Shown here: positions 6,760-58,947 of the stretch, one piece after another
Layout of the letters: each line of letters begins with the position of its first letter
How positions within the stretch are numbered: the first letter of the stretch is position 1
Source: Klebsiella phage KPN8
Sequence record: OP079919.1
Reading direction: 5' to 3' (one strand)
Length of the DNA stretch: 64,000 bases
Translations under genes and position numbers: made by a program
Notes under the pieces: model-generated
The model's input: the letters and a program-made list of their open reading frames with translations, nothing else
The model's database searches: none
What the model was told of the DNA's origin: nothing

Positions 6760-6808
6760 ATACTCCTACTCCCTTATCGGGAGTAGGAGTATAAACCTTA
6801 TTATTTTT
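6760..6808 (+). terminator. intrinsic terminator, palindromic family member 1 (ATACTCCTACTCCC-TTATC-GGGAGTAGGAGTAT + T-run)
   Basis: 14-bp perfect stem then T-rich tract. Confidence 0.75.
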
Positions 6809-6889
6809 TACTTGTATTTATTTATAGATCTTTATTATCAAAGCGTAAACTAAAACAACCGTTAACTTTATATGGTTGGTTTTTCCTAA

Positions 6890-18549: not shown

Positions 18550-18577
18550 TCTGAATAGACCTAGTAATAACTGGGTC

Positions 18578-18585
18578 TATATTAC
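18578..18585 (+). promoter_or_regulatory. TATATTAC box, candidate phage (phiKZ-type early) promoter
   Basis: exact 8-mer in intergenic gap 35 nt upstream of ATG 18620. Confidence 0.35.
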
Positions 18586-27336: not shown

Positions 27337-27372
27337 TAACTCCTACTCCCGATAAGGGAGTAGGAGTTATTA
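27337..27372 (+). terminator. intrinsic terminator, palindromic family member 3 (TAACTCCTACTCCC-GATAA-GGGAGTAGGAGTTA)
   Basis: 14-bp perfect stem; identical to element at 56851. Confidence 0.7.
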
Positions 27373-27416
27373 CACATGTAAATAAAAACAGACCTTTATT
27401 ATCTCTATGTGGAATA

Positions 27417-27436
27417 AACCATAATCTTTTTAGGAG
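27417..27436 (+). promoter_or_regulatory. 20-nt exact repeat AACCATAATCTTTTTAGGAG (copy 1), candidate promoter/-10 CATAAT plus SD
   Basis: identical 20-mer also at 50404-50423, each just upstream of a GTG-AAC start. Confidence 0.45.
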
Positions 27437-27444
27437 CATGTAAC

Positions 27445-38687: not shown

Positions 38688-39911
38688 ATGTTCGAATATC
38701 TCATTCAGATAAATCAGGTTCTCTCTTCTGTCCCTATTATCGGTGGGAGTTTAGCGGTAGCCTTAGGCGGCGGGATCATTGCCGCCTTCTGGAAAGGTCC
38801 AGCGTTACTCTCGAGGATTTTTAACTCCACTGTTGTGGTTTCCTTCACTCTTAATAACTCAGGGTGGGGCAATAATACCAAGCACTACATTGCGTTTATT
38901 AAATGGTTTAACCGTTCAGATATTCTTAAGATAACGCGATCTACTGGTTACGAGGCCGTTTACGACAGCTCTGGTAAAGGGCCTAGTGTCGGCAGTCATT
39001 TATTTCGATTTAAGAATAAATGGTACTATCTCAAAATCAAAGAACTCCCTTCTACGGGAAGCGAGCGTGAGAAGAAAGAGATATGTATAAAGACGTTAGG
39101 GTGTTCTGTCAGCATTTTCGACGATCTCTTCGAGGCCTTTAAGGATAAGACGGATGACGACGGAGAACTCAAAGTAAAACGGTTCAGGGACAATTACTGG
39201 TACGACGCCTGTCTTCTCAGCAGAAGGTCGTGGGATACCGTCATCTTAAACAAAGAAAAGAAGGTGGAAATAGTCGAACTCATCGAAGAGTTTTACGCGT
39301 CGAGGGAGTGGTACCGAGAAAGAGGAATACCGTATAAACTCGTTATTGTTTTGTACGGCCCGGCCGGGACGGGTAAGAGTACTGTTATCAAAGCGTTAGC
39401 ACGCTTGTTTAACAAAAACCTTAACCTCATTTATCTTCACCAAATGACGGATAACACCTTCCCGGCCAGCATAGAGACGGTAGAGCAAGATTCTTTTATT
39501 GCCATAGAGGATTTTGATACGGTTTCTTCTATAGGGTCGAGGACCAAACCTAAGGAGGAAAAAGATCCGTTCCAAATAGACCTTTCAGACGGAGGATTAA
39601 ACCTGACCACTGTTTTAAATACATTGGATGGGATCGCCGAATTGAATGGTCAGGTCATCTTTATGTCAACCAACCATCTTGAAAAGATCGACAGTGCGCT
39701 GATCAGAACGGGTAGGGTGGATGCAAAAATCCACATCGGGTTTTTAGGTAAAGAAGAGGTCGGAGACTTTATTCAAATGATGTATCCCGGAACAGAAACT
39801 GATTTGGATTTTGTTACAGAAATCTCTGGGTCGGATCTTCAGTCGTATGCGTTAGCCAACAAAAGAAATTCGGAAGGTTTCTTAAAAGAGCTTAAGGACC
39901 ATTTTAAATAA
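38688..39911 (+). CDS. Bcs1-like AAA+ ATPase with N-terminal transmembrane segment
   Basis: TM PIIGGSLAVALGGGIIAAFW; Walker A YGPAGTGKST; IEDFD Walker B; LNTLDG...IFMSTNHLEKIDSALIRTGRVDAKIHIG matches BCS1 second region of homology. Confidence 0.8.
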   Translation: MFEYLIQINQVLSSVPIIGGSLAVALGGGIIAAFWKGPALLSRIFNSTVVVSFTLNNSGWGNNTKHYIAFIKWFNRSDILKITRSTGYEAVYDSSGKGPSVGSHLFRFKNKWYYLKIKELPSTGSEREKKEICIKTLGCSVSIFDDLFEAFKDKTDDDGELKVKRFRDNYWYDACLLSRRSWDTVILNKEKKVEIVELIEEFYASREWYRERGIPYKLVIVLYGPAGTGKSTVIKALARLFNKNLNLIYLHQMTDNTFPASIETVEQDSFIAIEDFDTVSSIGSRTKPKEEKDPFQIDLSDGGLNLTTVLNTLDGIAELNGQVIFMSTNHLEKIDSALIRTGRVDAKIHIGFLGKEEVGDFIQMMYPGTETDLDFVTEISGSDLQSYALANKRNSEGFLKELKDHFK

Positions 39912-40948: not shown

Positions 40949-40964
40949 CATATTATTTTAAAAC

Positions 40965-40972
40965 TATATTAC
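40965..40972 (+). promoter_or_regulatory. TATATTAC box, candidate phage promoter
   Basis: exact 8-mer 43 nt upstream of ATG 41016, directly after terminator. Confidence 0.35.
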
Positions 40973-46887: not shown

Positions 46888-46963
46888 TTCGCTATTCTCT
46901 GAATTAGTTAGTAATAAACGATCATAGCATTTTAGACTTTCGACACATAGAAGTTTTCAGTTC

Positions 46964-46971
46964 TATATTAC
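46964..46971 (+). promoter_or_regulatory. TATATTAC box, candidate phage promoter
   Basis: exact 8-mer 39 nt upstream of ATG 47010 in divergent intergenic region. Confidence 0.35.
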
Positions 46972-47009: not shown

Positions 47010-47492
47010 ATGGAACTCGTTAATCAAAAAGTTTATATTGTTAAGCCAGGCGATACTCTGTCAGAGATAGCAAACCATTTTTGTGGGAATCCTGCTATCG
47101 GATACGATATAGCTGAGGACAACGGCATTATCAACGCCGGACTCATCTATCAAGGGCAAAGAATCTGGATAAGGGAGGGATTCCTAAAGGAAGAATTTAA
47201 GGGCGCTCCTAATACCCAACCCAAAGAAGAACCTTTCAGAGAAGGGCAGCATGTTCAAATCACCCCATCTGGTAAATTAACAAGACTGGATCTTCATGAC
47301 TTGTGTTGGAATACCGAACCATTAGCTAAGGGTTTCTTCGTGATTGTCGAAATACATCCAAATCAGACAGAGCTTTTAGTGCAAGATAATAAGAACCGCC
47401 ATTATTACTTCAATCTAAATGAATTGAAGGAACTTATTCGGGTTCGTGGGGCGATAGAAATTTCCCCTAATCGTTTTATGCCGTTTAGCTAA
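47010..47492 (+). CDS. LysM domain protein
   Basis: YIVKPGDTLSEIANHF...GLIYQGQRIWI LysM consensus at N-terminus. Confidence 0.7.
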   Translation: MELVNQKVYIVKPGDTLSEIANHFCGNPAIGYDIAEDNGIINAGLIYQGQRIWIREGFLKEEFKGAPNTQPKEEPFREGQHVQITPSGKLTRLDLHDLCWNTEPLAKGFFVIVEIHPNQTELLVQDNKNRHYYFNLNELKELIRVRGAIEISPNRFMPFS

Positions 47493-50343: not shown

Positions 50344-50403
50344 AACCAAGATTCCTATTATACGTTAAAGAATTTTGGATCTATATCACCGTCTTGATGC
50401 ACT

Positions 50404-50423
50404 AACCATAATCTTTTTAGGAG
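50404..50423 (+). promoter_or_regulatory. 20-nt exact repeat AACCATAATCTTTTTAGGAG (copy 2) upstream of GroEL-like gene
   Basis: identical to 27417-27436. Confidence 0.45.
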
Positions 50424-50433
50424 TATTAACATC

Positions 50434-52011
50434 GTGAACGTTCGTGGCGTAAAAGTAAAAGCAGAAACCCGTCAAATTATTGATAACACCGTAGAGCTCG
50501 TTGCAACCGCGGTAACCTCGACCATGGGCCCTAACGGCAAGCTGGTTGTTATTGACGAAACGGGTAATCCTAAAATGACCAAGGATGGGGTGACTGTAGC
50601 GCGCTCTATCCGTTTGGATGATCGGGCAATGGACATCATCGCCAAGATGATCACCGAAGCCTCGATCAAAACGGATGCCGAATGTGGCGATGGGACCACC
50701 ACCACCGTATTCTTAACAAGAGCGTTTTATAACGCCTTTAAAGATAAACTGGATTTCATGACCAAACGCCGGGTGGAAGAGTTAACGAAAGAAACGATCG
50801 AAATGCTCAAAGGAATGACGAAGGTTATTTCTCTTGATAGCCCAGTCCTTCACAATCTGGCGTTAACAACCAGTAATAACGATCTGGATATCGTGAATAA
50901 GCTCTACGATATCTTTAAGACCATACCCGATCCCATGATTGATTATCGTCGGGGTGTAACAGGTATTGACGAGATCGAATACAGTAAGGGCAAGGAATTC
51001 ACAGGCGGGTACGCGCACCCTACTTTCACTAAAGATGGAAGTGGAAGCCCGATTACGATCGAATCGGGTTATGCGTGCATCTTTGAAGGGAAGTTCAGTA
51101 TTCCAGATGACGAGTCGGAATTCCTGAGGCTCTTCGATGAGATCACTAAAAGGGGATATCGTCAGACTATCGTTATCGCACGTGAATTCGACGAACACAC
51201 CCTGATGGTGATGAACAAAATGAATCACGTTATGCTGAAGCAGAAACTGGCGGAGGAACCCGTTTTCATTCCTGTGCGGGTTCAGGCTATCGGAACAGCG
51301 GGAGTGGGGATCATTGGAGATATTGCAACCGTACTGGGGTTAAGTCCTGATGTGGACTATTTAGGTTGGAAGTCTCGTGACTATGAGGTACACTGTATTG
51401 AAAACATTACGGTAAAGGGCGCGGCATTCTTCGTGGGTAGTGTATCTGATGAAGTCTCGGAACGCACAGTAAAGCGCATCGGGCAAATTAAAGATCAAAT
51501 CGATAACTTGCCAGCTGCTCAGAAACACACGCCTTTGGCGAAGATCCTGAGACACCGTATCTCTACTCTGATGGGTAACCGAGTGACTGTAACCGTTGGA
51601 GGAGAAACCGCTTCCGACATCAAAGAACGACTGGATCGATTTGAAGACGTCGGTCGGGCTATCGCATCAGCGTTAACTAACGGCGTCCTTCCGGGCATTG
51701 GTTATTCATTGGCTTATGTTGGTAGTGAGCTGGTGAAGAAATATCCTGACGATTCTATAGTGAAACTGTACGCCGATGTATTGGGCGAGCAGCTTCACAT
51801 GTTGATGGGTCGGGAATTCAATGATCCTGAATTAGTCTATGTCAATCTGGCTACTGGGGAAACCGGTAAGCATCCTCAAGACATCAACGTCTGGGATGCG
51901 CAGTTAGCCACAGTCACTGCGTTAAGGGCTGGTGTCAGCACTGCTATCTCTTTGGCGAGCACCGATACGTTAATTATCGGTAGTCGTGCAGGTGGTGCGG
52001 ATATTCCCTGA
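50434..52011 (+). CDS. GroEL-like chaperonin (Cpn60/TCP-1 family), GTG start
   Basis: MGPNGKLVVIDETGNPKMTKDGVTVARSI...AECGDGTTTTVFL matches GroEL GPKGRNVVL..TKDGVSVAREI..AGDGTTTATVL; 525 aa; no adjacent GroES. Confidence 0.85.
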   Translation: MNVRGVKVKAETRQIIDNTVELVATAVTSTMGPNGKLVVIDETGNPKMTKDGVTVARSIRLDDRAMDIIAKMITEASIKTDAECGDGTTTTVFLTRAFYNAFKDKLDFMTKRRVEELTKETIEMLKGMTKVISLDSPVLHNLALTTSNNDLDIVNKLYDIFKTIPDPMIDYRRGVTGIDEIEYSKGKEFTGGYAHPTFTKDGSGSPITIESGYACIFEGKFSIPDDESEFLRLFDEITKRGYRQTIVIAREFDEHTLMVMNKMNHVMLKQKLAEEPVFIPVRVQAIGTAGVGIIGDIATVLGLSPDVDYLGWKSRDYEVHCIENITVKGAAFFVGSVSDEVSERTVKRIGQIKDQIDNLPAAQKHTPLAKILRHRISTLMGNRVTVTVGGETASDIKERLDRFEDVGRAIASALTNGVLPGIGYSLAYVGSELVKKYPDDSIVKLYADVLGEQLHMLMGREFNDPELVYVNLATGETGKHPQDINVWDAQLATVTALRAGVSTAISLASTDTLIIGSRAGGADIP

Positions 52012-52053
52012 TGCGTTTTAGGGGAAGGAAACTTCCCCATTGGGAGAATTTTT

Positions 52054-52311
52054 ATGGACGTTAACACTTCGTCAATTAAAAATTCTAATAATAGACAACA
52101 TAATAATTACAGCGATTCATCCTCCGCTCCGATTCAGTTGGATCGTTCGGGGGAAATTGTCGACGCCAGAACTAAGCTAACAGTTACTGGTGAAATTCCT
52201 CTTCGAAAGTTACCCACTTTCTCAAACCCACCGCAAAGAACAATAAGAGACGATAAAAAACCTTCATCACTCTGGGGGATGGTTAGAGCTCTGTTCTTTG
52301 TATTCATGTGA
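52054..52311 (+). CDS. small polar Asn/Ser-rich protein (85 aa), uncertain
   Basis: ORF between two hairpins; low complexity. Confidence 0.3.
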   Translation: MDVNTSSIKNSNNRQHNNYSDSSSAPIQLDRSGEIVDARTKLTVTGEIPLRKLPTFSNPPQRTIRDDKKPSSLWGMVRALFFVFM

Positions 52312-52318
52312 TACTATT

Positions 52319-52365
52319 CCTCTACCCACGTGGGTAGAGGAATAATAACGCTTTTTTATTTTTTA
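52319..52365 (+). terminator. terminator hairpin (CCTCTACCCAC-GTGGGTAGAGG) with downstream T-run
   Basis: 11-bp perfect stem; T6/T6 runs 11 nt downstream. Confidence 0.55.
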
Positions 52366-52443: not shown

Positions 52444-53412
52444 ATGTCGAAAATTAGTGGTTACAAAGAACATCCGGTAATAAAAAACCTTTTCATCCAT
52501 CCTACGGAAGATAATCACGTCCTGTATGTTAGGAAGAAAAAAGTATCTCGGATAAAGACCCATGTCGGTAAACGCGGATACGTTATTTTTACCATGTGGT
52601 TAAATGGGAAATCCAAGGGTTTTCGCTTCCACAAATTGAAAGCCGAAACGTATCTCAAGAAACCCAGTTCAGACCGCACCCTAGTCGTAAATCATAAGGA
52701 CCATGTTAAGATCAATAACGATCTCGATAACCTAGAATGGGGGACTCAGAAAGAGAATGTCGATCATTCATTAAATATCCGTCAAAAGCTTTGTCCTCTC
52801 TATCGGATAATGGATTTAACTACGGGGAGATGGTGTACAGCCGGTAGTCGTAAAGGGGTAATCGAAATGCTAGCTTGTACCCAACGACAACTCTCTAACC
52901 ATATTAAAGACCCTCGCTATCCATTGCTATTCAAGTGGGAAGTAACAAGGGGTTTTACTTGGAATCTTTCAAAAGATGACGTGGGTAAATATAACCCACG
53001 AGAGCTTCTTCCTTATGTGGTAGAAAAGAATGGCGTCGTTTTTTACCTGGCGACATTAGCTGAAGTTGGTGAATTGACAAAGATCACTAAATACAATATT
53101 ACAGTTGCTTTGAAAAATCAACCAATTCTGCATGCCAAGGGATTCAGCATTCGGTTTATTAATTCTTATGAAGAGTGGATGAAGACTGTTATTGGGAAGT
53201 CCTATATCGATACCATGTTAAATAAAAGTAATAGAAATAAAAAACGGATCGAGGTAATAAACACTCTTACGGAGGAGAAAACCACGTTAAACGGAATTAT
53301 GGAATTAATGGAACTGACTAATTATTCACGACCTACCATCGACAGGGCAATGAAAAATATGTGTGAAGATGGGTGGGTGACTTTCAAAAATCTAAAGATA
53401 AGGTTTATTTAA
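52444..53412 (+). CDS. HNH homing endonuclease (HNH_3 type with NUMOD-like N-terminus)
   Basis: VVNHKDHVKINNDLDNLEWGTQKENVDH; start moved to ATG 52444 (MSKISGYKEHPVI). Confidence 0.8.
   Translation: MSKISGYKEHPVIKNLFIHPTEDNHVLYVRKKKVSRIKTHVGKRGYVIFTMWLNGKSKGFRFHKLKAETYLKKPSSDRTLVVNHKDHVKINNDLDNLEWGTQKENVDHSLNIRQKLCPLYRIMDLTTGRWCTAGSRKGVIEMLACTQRQLSNHIKDPRYPLLFKWEVTRGFTWNLSKDDVGKYNPRELLPYVVEKNGVVFYLATLAEVGELTKITKYNITVALKNQPILHAKGFSIRFINSYEEWMKTVIGKSYIDTMLNKSNRNKKRIEVINTLTEEKTTLNGIMELMELTNYSRPTIDRAMKNMCEDGWVTFKNLKIRFI
52444..53412 (+). mobile_element. free-standing homing endonuclease gene inserted immediately upstream of tdk
   Basis: HNH HEG abutting tdk with TAATG overlap. Confidence 0.55.
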
Positions 53413-56850: not shown

Positions 56851-56895
56851 TAACTCCTACTCCCGATAAGGGAGTAGGAGTTATTAACTTTTTTG
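56851..56895. terminator. bidirectional terminator, palindromic family member 6 (TAACTCCTACTCCC-GATAA-GGGAGTAGGAGTTA)
   Basis: identical to 27337 element; between convergent genes. Confidence 0.75.
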
Positions 56896-56898
56896 TTT

Positions 56899-58947
56899 TT
56901 AGAACAAATCTAAAACTGAAGATGTGGATTTAGGAAGCGGCATAGTAGGTAATTCGAAATCCATTAACTCCAATGCCTCTTCCCCACCGATAGCCCTCAA
57001 TGAAGGATTATTCAGTGTACTCTGAGATAACAGCTCTTCAACGTTGTCCCTCGACCACTGTAGAATATCGATGGACCGGGTCATGATGTTAAGTTCTTTA
57101 CCGGTATCCAGCTCGATCATCCAGAAGAAGCAAGGTTTATCCTGACCTTGTCTGAAGATACGCGCCTTGGTTTGTTTCAGCTCGTAATCCCTCCAAGGGG
57201 CATCCATGAGGATCTCCTGGTTAGCTACGACCATGTGCGCCGATTCCCTCAAAGATCTGAAGGTGGTGACTGCTGGGTTCAAATCAGGTTCCGTATCAAA
57301 CCGTTTGATTAGAATGTCTTTAGACTGATCGGCATCACCGTAAATCAATAGCGGTTTAAACCCTTCCTTGTTAAGCACACTATAGACTTCATTCAGCACA
57401 TCCACATAAGACGTAAAGATCAGTGTTTTCTTCTCTACGTTGTTTATCATGGATGGAAGTCCTGCATGCGCAACAACTGCCCTTACGGCTTCTATACGGG
57501 CCTTACCCAACACATTACCTAAAGCCTCCCCTCTTATCTTCAAGCCAACGTACTTAACGGCCGATTTGATATTGCGGAACTGTTTCAGCTGCTCTCCACG
57601 TAATCGAGCTTCAATGTCGATTTCGACGTTCTTAGCGTACTGGGAATCAGCTGAGTCAGTAAAGTTGTTATAACCGTGAGTTCTGAACCGATTCACGATC
57701 TGTTTGTATTTAACCAGTTCACCCAGCTTACCGTTGTCATCTTTAACGTAGCTTTCGTAATCGTCTAAAACGTGATTAAAGAAAGCCAAAAAAATCGGCA
57801 TGTTTTGTTCGTAGAACTTGACTCGGTTCTGTATGTAAGAAAGCATTTCGAGTCTAATGGCTTTCAACGTGAATCGTTCGCCATTAGGAACGGTAACCGG
57901 AACCATTTCTACCGGTGGCTCCTCACCCATATCAAAGAGAGAATCAATGACGTAACGTGTTCTACCCAACCGATGGGCCAGAAGGGTGTTAAGTTTATCC
58001 CTGGATAGCCCGTAAGACTTCATGAAACGCTCTCTGGCGTTTCCTTTAAAGAAAGGATCTATCAGTGCAAAGATTGAATACGCTTCCCTTGCCATGGCTT
58101 TTAGAGGGGTTCCTGACATAGGAAGAGAATCATTGAAGGGATAATGGTCAGCGGCTTTAATGATATTCTGGGTTTGTTTAGAACTCAGCTCGTTAAAGTT
58201 GTGGGACTCATCAACAACGAGTGACACTCCGCCTTTACCAGCCGCCTCGAAAACCTGATCGAGAATCTTAAAGAAATCAGGGTTTCTTGTATAATCAATG
58301 TGAATAAGGAAGTATTCGCAAGAAGGATCAAACGGTTTATTTTGACGGGTACTCCAATACTTAGGAGGGTCAACAAAAACCTTTTCCTCCATGTGCAACT
58401 TCCAGACGGTATTGATTCCTGCGTCTGGGCAAATGATGATATGTTTTTTATTACCCGTTAATCTTGTCCACATCAAGCTAGTGTAGGTTTTTCCACTACC
58501 TGCCTTGGCGTCCAGCAAAAGCCCTTTAAGGTGGTGTGATTTCTTAACCATCTTGTAAGTGGATATAAAACCCCATTGAGTATCATAAGGTTTTATTTTA
58601 AACTGTTTTAAAAAAGAAGCTTTGTCTATCGGATAAGCTGTAGGGGTAACGGTATCCTTTATCCAGGTATCCGTTCTGAGTTTTATTTGGAGTTCGTTAA
58701 GGCTCTTGCGACTACTCCAAGTATTTCTTGACTGGAGGATCTTTGTTATTAGATGATCCAACTCCAATAAGAAAAAGTTATCCGTAACGAACTTATTGGA
58801 CCCAACACGTCTGAACATATAACGACCTGGCGTGCTTGTACCATACGCGGTCTGTATGTCGTCATTAAAGTTACGGAAGTTAACATGATTGATTTCCGTA
58901 ATAGTCGGTCCTTGTTTAACATCAGGCCCAAAGATATAGTTTAACAT
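56899..58947 (-). CDS. SF2 (SNF2/DExH-like) helicase
   Basis: motif I AKAGSGKT, II VVDESHNF, III LPMSGTP, VI QTKARIFRQGQ; ATG 58947 preferred over TTG 58953. Confidence 0.8.
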   Translation of the reverse strand: MLNYIFGPDVKQGPTITEINHVNFRNFNDDIQTAYGTSTPGRYMFRRVGSNKFVTDNFFLLELDHLITKILQSRNTWSSRKSLNELQIKLRTDTWIKDTVTPTAYPIDKASFLKQFKIKPYDTQWGFISTYKMVKKSHHLKGLLLDAKAGSGKTYTSLMWTRLTGNKKHIIICPDAGINTVWKLHMEEKVFVDPPKYWSTRQNKPFDPSCEYFLIHIDYTRNPDFFKILDQVFEAAGKGGVSLVVDESHNFNELSSKQTQNIIKAADHYPFNDSLPMSGTPLKAMAREAYSIFALIDPFFKGNARERFMKSYGLSRDKLNTLLAHRLGRTRYVIDSLFDMGEEPPVEMVPVTVPNGERFTLKAIRLEMLSYIQNRVKFYEQNMPIFLAFFNHVLDDYESYVKDDNGKLGELVKYKQIVNRFRTHGYNNFTDSADSQYAKNVEIDIEARLRGEQLKQFRNIKSAVKYVGLKIRGEALGNVLGKARIEAVRAVVAHAGLPSMINNVEKKTLIFTSYVDVLNEVYSVLNKEGFKPLLIYGDADQSKDILIKRFDTEPDLNPAVTTFRSLRESAHMVVANQEILMDAPWRDYELKQTKARIFRQGQDKPCFFWMIELDTGKELNIMTRSIDILQWSRDNVEELLSQSTLNNPSLRAIGGEEALELMDFELPTMPLPKSTSSVLDLF

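Follow-up and report, generated by a model that had tools for sequence, protein, structure and literature searches.

How a chaperonin would operate in a phage that carries no recognizable gene for a lid is the question raised by a locus of Klebsiella phage KPN8 (sequence record OP079919.1), of which a stretch of 64,000 nucleotides (nt), hereafter the window, was analysed. A preliminary description of this DNA had recognized a GroEL-like chaperonin without an adjacent GroES partner and had likened it to the proteins of the phages EL and OBP. Our results make it very probable that the encoded protein is an EL/OBP-type viral chaperonin, which would act without a lid and as a single ring, and which would be expressed from an early two-gene unit. 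The coordinates of all features are collected in Table 1.

The protein belongs to the Cpn60 superfamily and to a phage chaperonin family, and it is neither a canonical GroEL nor a group II chaperonin. This assignment is based on the combined results of sequence and structure comparisons, in which the best matches all lie within the Cpn60/TCP-1 fold, as had been anticipated. The Pfam model Cpn60_TCP1 (PF00118) is matched with 68.7 bits at a cut-off of 34.3 (E 5e-19) in residues 23-151 only, and the phage family phrog_5725, termed 'chaperonin groEL', provides a full-length match covering residues 6-518 (E 3e-125). In a phmmer search of PDB sequences, the first two positions are taken by EL gp146 (6tmt, E 1e-74) and OBP gp246 (6hdd, E 3e-66), the latter represented by a 515-residue chain that equals the gp246 sequence over the stretch compared, and cellular GroEL and Hsp60 proteins appear with E-values of about 1e-30 to 1e-35. 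An AlphaFold model built from 109 homologues (pLDDT 92.3, pTM 0.83) contains the three-domain architecture of the family, with an equatorial (codons 1-127 and 416-525), an intermediate (128-184 and 384-415) and an apical domain (185-383) delimited by mapping onto GroEL. A Foldseek search with this model retrieved 558 PDB chains at E ≤ 0.001, the best 50 of which are all chaperonins. The top matches are exclusively chains of EL gp146, with template modelling (TM) scores up to 0.81 (E 5e-39). Group I chaperonins come next (TM 0.55-0.68), and OBP 6hdd is not among these best 50 of 558 though it ranks second in the sequence search.

The same comparisons delimit the protein from its cellular counterparts. 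The NCBIfam models for GroEL give about 150 bits, which is below their curated cut-offs of 352-582, with values of 148-151 bits for TIGR02348 and NF000592 and respective cut-offs of 582 (equivalog) and 397. Models of thermosomes and CCT reach 26-40 bits at cut-offs of 400-800 and are confined to the N-terminal region (within residues 13-146), and the apical domain is of the size found in GroEL, without the long insertion that would provide the built-in helical lid of a group II chaperonin. Overall sequence identity amounts to 32.5% with EL, 29.7% with OBP and 24.0% with enterobacterial GroEL. Homologues were found in 272 phage records, so such chaperonins are less rare than supposed; at least 4959 matches at E ≤ 1e-10 were obtained among the best 8000 candidates, a number that probably includes cellular GroEL.

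The open reading frame (ORF) itself is well defined. The product of 525 amino acids is 23 residues shorter than enterobacterial GroEL (548 amino acids) and contains the ATP-binding motifs GPNGK (residues 32-36), TKDGVTVA (49-56) and GDGTTT (85-90), all of which had been noted before. Its GTG start is sound, since there is no in-frame start codon between the upstream stop and this position, the first methionine thereafter (residue 31) is located within the conserved TMGP motif, and the same GTG is found in six of six close relatives. A Shine-Dalgarno sequence (AGGAG) precedes it by 10 nt, and ATG occupies the equivalent position in two more distant relatives, at 61% and 43% identity. The phage is a Miami-like (Miamivirus) jumbo phage of Klebsiella with a genome of about 252 kb. 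At the nucleotide level, the chaperonin gene is 99.5% identical to that of the Klebsiella phage phiKp_32, 99.2% to YC1, 97.1% to Klebsiella phage Miami, 96.8% to 'Stenotrophomonas' phage BUCTxx100 and 92.3% to Raoultella phage VB_ZK_P1. The genomes of these phages measure 251-257 kb, and their orthologues agree in length, start codon and locus. The Miami orthologue, gp205, is already labelled 'chaperonin groEL' in its RefSeq record, with annotation notes pointing to homologues in EL, RisingSun, PCH45 and pTD1, and most other records list a 'hypothetical protein'. The chaperonins of the Miami group are known from sequence alone, as members of a class that is itself known and in which one sister is already annotated. 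Miami serves as distant relative in a study of the core genome of nucleus-forming phages, whose main text does not mention chaperonins (PMC10299810), and in the work describing CRISPRi-ART 'chaperonin' is an annotation class only, with no family-specific data (PMC11879866).

The positions that bind nucleotide or take part in catalysis in Cpn60 proteins are conserved. Retained positions include the stretch from T30 to P33 (T-M-G-P), K50 and D51, the stretch from D86 to T90 (D-G-T-T-T), D405 (equivalent to D398 of GroEL), N471 and D488, most of the nucleotide-binding and catalytic positions being invariant across the alignment of the 109-member family. A glycine motif is kept as G421-I-G423, which reads GGG in GroEL and GIG in OBP. 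The ATPase site is thus intact in all residues that bind nucleotide or contribute to catalysis. Ratios of nonsynonymous to synonymous substitution rates (dN/dS) for the entire gene range between 0.14 and 0.27.

With bacterial GroEL/GroES the protein shares the three-domain fold, an identical nucleotide-binding chemistry and an equatorial domain compatible with a heptamer, but it differs in the absence of the GGM tail, of the residues mediating staggered ring contacts, of the allosteric salt bridges and of a groES gene. Loss of the tail and of the inter-ring contacts had been raised as a point to be checked and was borne out in an alignment with GroEL, EL and OBP. The chain ends with ...IIGSRAGGADIP and thus lacks the GGM motif, which occurs within the last 30 residues of 16 of the 112 aligned sequences, namely Salmonella GroEL and 15 homologues (P0035, P0055, P0094-P0096 and others), so that loss of the tail is restricted to some of the family members. 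Of the two allosteric pairs of GroEL, R197-E386 is replaced by G191 and A393 and D83-K327 by A82 and G329.

A further deviation concerns the interface between rings. In GroEL, E461, S463, V464 and E434 participate in ring contacts, and each of these residues is aligned to a gap in the window chaperonin; the remaining inter-ring contacts (R452, K105 and A109) are not conserved. In EL, contacts with a 1:1 arrangement involve residues 460-469, K486 and 492-494, the last being part of the loop 479-503 (Bracher et al., PMC7185714). K486 and H492-N494 have no counterpart in the window chaperonin, and the equivalents of 460-469 are not conserved. Between two conserved anchors, the interface segment spans 13 residues in the window chaperonin and in OBP, compared to 26 in EL and 24 in GroEL, and its length divides the 112 aligned sequences into two classes. 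The short class (11-16 residues, n = 36, mean protein length 526 amino acids) contains the window chaperonin, OBP and the Vibrio pTD1/VP4B group, and the long class (n = 76, mean 556 amino acids) contains EL. As the short segment is common to both proteins, the window chaperonin most likely assembles as a single ring in the manner of OBP gp246.

Two viral proteins of known structure allow a more detailed comparison. EL gp146 (6TMT-6TMX) is the best match in sequence and structure, and it is likewise lidless and devoid of a GGM tail, but it is longer (558 amino acids) and builds its 1:1 ring contacts from an alphaN2 insertion and the 479-503 loop, both missing in the window chaperonin. For this reason, a different oligomeric cycle from EL is to be expected. 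OBP gp246 (6HDD), a single-ring heptamer of about 520 amino acids, shares the Cpn60 fold, the 13-residue interface segment, the absence of counterparts to E461, S463 and V464 of GroEL and to K486 and H492-N494 of EL, the G-I-G in place of GGG, the loss of the R197-E386 pair and the missing GGM tail, although identity falls from its overall value to 17.8% in the apical domain. The proposed likeness to EL and OBP is hence appropriate in that both are the nearest solved structures. It requires correction with respect to EL, whose chaperonin forms a double ring when free of nucleotide and requires ATP to split into single rings (PMC7185714), constitutive single rings being known for OBP and AR9 only (PMC7185714, PMC9598537).

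A second feature that distinguishes the system from GroEL concerns the absent co-chaperonin. When all six-frame ORFs of at least 40 amino acids from the window and from the complete genome of phiKp_32 (251,460 bp) were searched by phmmer with Salmonella GroES and T4 gp31 as queries, no homologue was found, the best hit (E 0.075) being a 55-residue antisense frame. No Cpn10 is present among the Pfam matches listed for 87 small ORFs of the window (to E of about 0.02) or among those listed for 149 small ORFs of phiKp_32 (to E of about 0.004), and there is a single Cpn60 gene. The PHROG profiles of ten neighbouring proteins include no co-chaperonin; the neighbours comprise a LysM endolysin-like protein, a helix-turn-helix protein, an HNH endonuclease, thymidine kinase and proteins of no assigned function. 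The earlier statement that no GroES- or gp31-like gene is adjacent is hereby extended to the 251-kb genome of the closest relative.

The locus was further compared in relatives with chaperonins of 80%, 61%, 43% and about 40% identity and in OBP and EL. The order of chaperonin, zero to three small ORFs and thymidine kinase is preserved in all four relatives and in OBP, and the gene following the chaperonin in EL carries no identification. The small ORFs in this interval are unrelated to one another across the compared loci, including those of OBP and the window, and no small neighbouring gene is conserved throughout the family at these loci. A conserved chaperonin locus in a jumbo phage related to phiKZ is in line with an EL/OBP-type system. 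In the window, the interval holds an 85-residue ORF, which is not GroES-like. Every close relative has it in the corresponding place, as do the 80% and 61% relatives (with 64% identity in the latter). The 43% relative lacks it, and the small ORFs that OBP and the Vibrio phage carry here are unrelated to it. It has no match among PHROGs, and a low-confidence AlphaFold model from its single sequence (pLDDT 63) is mostly disordered, with one C-terminal helix (residues 73-84) and no beta-barrel. We have considered this ORF as hidden GroES and rejected the idea in light of its restriction to the close clade, the lack of a family match and the predicted disorder. On the side of the chaperonin, the region of helices H and I, which in GroEL lines the groove for GroES and substrate, varies more within the family than most other parts of the protein, an unexpected pattern for the docking site of a conserved lid. 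Since no partner gene was found and since the chaperonins of EL, OBP and AR9 act without co-chaperonin (PMC7185714, PMC9598537), the best-supported reading is that the window chaperonin would do the same.

The expression signals at the locus suggest transcription early in infection. At a distance of 52 nt upstream of the GTG, there is a promoter-like box, CTATATCAC, which conforms to the class TATATTAC. This consensus is the early promoter predicted for phiKZ, and longer versions of it are listed for 201phi2-1, OBP and EL (PMC7058600 Table 2). The chaperonin genes of the 61% relative (CTATATAAC), the 43% relative (CTATATTAC) and the Vibrio-phage relative (CCTATATTACTCGGGTG) have a corresponding box in front of them, and the EL gene is also preceded by one (CCTATATTACTCAGGTG, of the type CCTATATTAC). 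The pattern CTATATHAC is matched four times in the window, always on the plus strand (1.23 expected on both strands), and all four sites are intergenic, in a window with about 5.8% intergenic DNA, at 42-52 nt in front of a gene start; one of these early-type boxes precedes the LysM endolysin-like gene at 47010-47489. A scan for sigma-70 promoters yielded four sites in the window compared to 11.4 expected, none of them upstream of the chaperonin, and host-type promoters are thus not supported. The EL chaperonin is detectable from 15 min after infection (PMC7185714, PMC9598537).

The preliminary description had instead assigned a promoter/Shine-Dalgarno role to a 20-nt element shared with one other gene. 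The repeat does exist, as a 23-nt element with a 22/23 match to positions 27417-27439, where it sits upstream of another gene starting with GTG-AAC. Its 3' half, however, is part of a translation-initiation consensus used throughout the genome, TTTAGGA(N1-4)WAAMAYC-ATG, whose strict form occurs ten times on the plus and not once on the minus strand (26 compared to 4 for a looser form), and its 13-nt 5' extension is poorly conserved and lost in the 61% and 43% relatives. For both reasons the element is not a demonstrated promoter, and its interpretation as a regulatory signal for two genes was rejected; CTATATCAC appears the better promoter candidate. Sites of the initiation consensus, which is far longer than a plain Shine-Dalgarno sequence, include 9815, 15486, 18604, 33870, 36099, 47920 and 54062. 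Downstream of the 85-residue ORF, a strong predicted intrinsic terminator with an 8-nt spacer before its T tract was found by folding and missed by a simple terminator scan, and the Miami record annotates a terminator at the same place. The transcription unit would thus consist of the promoter-like box, the chaperonin, the 85-residue ORF and this terminator. Elsewhere in the window, three identical intergenic hairpins with a 12-bp stem, ACTCCTACTCCC-N4-GGGAGTAGGAGT (family D3), probably constitute a family of intrinsic terminators.

Several considerations weigh against an EL/OBP-type chaperonin as described. Hydrophobic residues are kept at the apical positions Y193, F198, L257 and M263. The prediction of a single ring leans on OBP as the one characterised example with the same deletion, and a new ring interface is possible, since EL builds its ring contacts from non-homologous elements. 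A highly divergent or structurally novel lid protein could evade phmmer, Pfam and PHROG, and the chaperonin may also use GroES of its Klebsiella host, which is compatible with the genomic data. Finally, the promoter call hangs on a 9-nt box and on consensuses that are themselves predicted in several phages, and the region upstream of the OBP gene shows only a degenerate box with a weak match.

The use of host GroES is at the heart of an explanation that we regard as improbable, in which the protein would be a classical group I GroEL that recruits the lid of the host for encapsulation and thus has no need for a phage-encoded one. It could account for the retained apical residues and for the closer relationship to group I than to group II, as reflected in the scores of the GroEL and of the N-terminally confined thermosome/CCT models, and it has a precedent in lambda and T4, which exploit host GroEL/GroES (PMC9598537). 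It is difficult to reconcile with the low identity to enterobacterial GroEL and the scores below all curated cut-offs, with the non-conserved H/I groove, the gap opposite L237 of GroEL and the loss of both allosteric pairs, and in particular with the behaviour of EL gp146, the closest characterised homologue, which neither binds nor responds to E. coli GroES and fails to refold a client that depends on encapsulation (PMC7185714). If, instead, the product of the 85-residue ORF served the chaperonin as a cofactor, regulator or adaptor specific to this clade, the Miami-like system would not be free of partners. Its location between chaperonin and terminator, within the apparent transcription unit, would fit such a role, as would its conserved position and a divergence resembling that of the chaperonin (64% compared to 61% identity); yet co-transcription alone is weak evidence in a dense phage genome, and in light of the absence of the ORF in the 43% relative, the unrelated ORFs in OBP and the Vibrio phage, the missing family match and the predicted disorder with a single helix and no beta-barrel, we consider this very improbable. 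Least credible, to a degree that we would hardly entertain it, is a Cpn60 remnant that is decaying or has been repurposed, for instance as a structural or a non-ATPase protein. The confinement of the Pfam alignment to an N-terminal segment and the very fast apical divergence might be viewed in this way, but the nucleotide-binding and catalytic residues are intact and across the family invariant or nearly so, the equatorial domain is under strong constraint (dN/dS 0.03 against the 80% relative and no change with respect to Miami), the AlphaFold model shows all three domains at high confidence, and three homologues are proven ATP-dependent chaperones (PMC7185714, PMC9598537).

As a viral chaperonin of the EL/OBP type, the protein would form an ATP-driven heptameric ring of Cpn60-fold subunits, assembled as a single ring like OBP gp246, whose apical domains would bind non-native proteins, most likely those of the phage. 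These clients would be kept soluble or assisted in folding without a GroES-like lid and without encapsulation, and, by analogy with EL, OBP and AR9, the process would proceed without host GroES. Transcription would occur early from the phiKZ-type promoter of the gene itself, as part of a two-gene unit ending at the strong terminator. One candidate for a client is the phage endolysin, as the EL chaperonin associates with the endolysin gp188 (PMC7185714, PMC9598537).

Unexpected heterogeneity was found within the gene. Compared to Miami, none of the 236 equatorial residues differ, whereas differences are found in 1 of 89 intermediate and 17 of 199 apical residues, and the synonymous divergence (dS) increases from 0.018 in the equatorial to 0.154 in the apical domain. 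Of the 46 nt differences between both genes, 30 fall in a single 153-nt patch of the apical domain (binomial P 8e-20). The distance of this patch from the window sequence is about 20% for Miami and BUCTxx100, which carry another allele with 13-14 amino acid changes in codons 299-350 inside otherwise nearly identical genes, and 7.8% for VB_ZK_P1. In the last 529 nt of the gene, by contrast, Miami, BUCTxx100 and YC1 show no difference from the window and VB_ZK_P1 differs by 10.4%. The groupings of alleles in the patch and in the 3' part conflict across six relatives (Fisher P 5e-16), and such conflicting genealogies are read here as a signature of recombination. A metagenomic relative (P0002, locus L012) provides a more extreme case, with 97.5% identity in the equatorial and 54.8% in the apical domain, for which the family median in the same equatorial bin is 94.9%, and with a dS that rises from 0.45 in the equatorial domain to saturation in the apical domain. 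The apical domain diverges faster than the equatorial domain in every comparison within the family. Faster protein evolution alone was rejected as cause, as apical synonymous divergence is at least eightfold higher and the genealogies of alleles conflict. No second copy of the patch, which would bear on an origin by a diversity-generating retroelement, is present among the listed repeats of the window, a list that is not exhaustive. We found no report of apical mosaicism for this chaperonin family in the literature consulted, which is not proof of novelty.

The cause of this mosaicism could be co-evolution with clients or the evasion of a factor directed against the chaperonin. As a tentative proposal, which we hold to be doubtful rather than probable, the apical domain might act as an exchangeable specificity cassette on a fixed ATPase-ring chassis, and in combination with the minimal interface this would define a class of obligate single-ring, lidless chaperonins with modular specificity.

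Table 1. Features of the chaperonin locus and related elements in the 64,000-nt window.
Feature	Position	Strand	Remarks
Chaperonin coding sequence	50434..52011	+	525 amino acids, GTG start
Promoter-like box CTATATCAC	50381..50389	+	phiKZ-type predicted early class (TATATTAC), 52 nt 5' of GTG
CTATATTAC / CTATATCAC boxes	18577-18585, 40964-40972, 46963-46971, 50381-50389	+	Intergenic; early-promoter consensus of phiKZ-like phages
23-nt element AACCATAATCTTTTTAGGAGTAT	50404..50426	+	22/23 match to 27417-27439 (repeat family D20)
Translation-initiation region TTTAGGAGTATTAACATC	50416..50433	+	AGGAG at 50419-50423; repeat family D1, 10 copies
Hypervariable, putatively recombinant patch	51330..51482	+	Gene nt 897-1049, codons 299-350, roughly GroEL residues 294-347
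Small hairpin	52021..52038	+	Between chaperonin stop and next ORF; -13.7 kcal/mol, z -2.3 (weak)
85-residue ORF	52054..52311	+	3' of chaperonin, apparently co-transcribed; not GroES-like
Intrinsic terminator	52315..52364	+	13-bp stem ATTCCTCTACCCA/TGGGTAGAGGAAT, then T-rich tract; -24.2 kcal/mol, z -6.4
HNH homing-endonuclease gene	52444-53409	+	Between terminator of the chaperonin unit and thymidine kinase
BCS1-like AAA+ ATPase gene	38688-39911	+	407 amino acids
Hairpins ACTCCTACTCCC-N4-GGGAGTAGGAGT	6762-6810, 27339-27387, 56853-56901		Family D3, intergenic

The surroundings of the locus show signs of exchange of their own. The HNH homing-endonuclease gene that follows the chaperonin unit (phrog_59, E 3e-22; Pfam HNH_3) also occurs in BUCTxx100, phiKp_32 and VB_ZK_P1, whereas Miami and YC1 lack it, and this variation among close relatives identifies it as a mobile insertion polymorphism. 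On a larger scale, positions 260-63995 of the window correspond to 149464-199214 of phiKp_32, so that 64 kb are related to about 50 kb in around 20 collinear blocks of 80-97% identity, between which many small ORFs have been replaced or inserted in a mosaic manner. About 10.5 kb upstream of the chaperonin, a BCS1-like AAA+ ATPase (AAA, E 1e-11; BCS1_N with 27.8 bits, just below the cut-off of 28.1), which corresponds to the 'chaperone protein' gp182 of Miami, represents a second putative protein-remodelling machine. Two loci of phiKp_32 (L004-L005), both beyond the part represented in the window, contain two Tad2-like proteins and a homologue of the anti-CBASS protein Acb1, as detected by Pfam, and, according to annotation, two TnpB genes and an HslU-like ATPase; the Vibrio-phage relative (L015) likewise has an Acb1 gene, located upstream of its chaperonin.

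Collectively, the results do not overturn the current understanding, as the gene class is known and a close relative has already been annotated. The points that we believe to be new are the predicted single ring and the apparent swapping of the client-binding domain between related phages, and together with the conserved early-type promoter they would lift the gene somewhat above routine. To our knowledge, only three viral chaperonins have been characterised, those of EL, OBP and AR9. To the question of how a lidless ring aids folding, the window protein adds a member from a phage of enterobacteria whose ring interface belongs to the smallest class sampled. The division into short and long interface segments offers a sequence rule that could predict single and double rings. 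If the apical domain is indeed exchanged as a module, the recognition of clients or inhibitors would be under diversifying pressure, either by co-evolution with phage clients or by a factor of the host or of a rival phage that targets the chaperonin. The natural apical variants on a near-constant ATPase chassis provide a ready-made series of chimeras for defining the determinants of client specificity.

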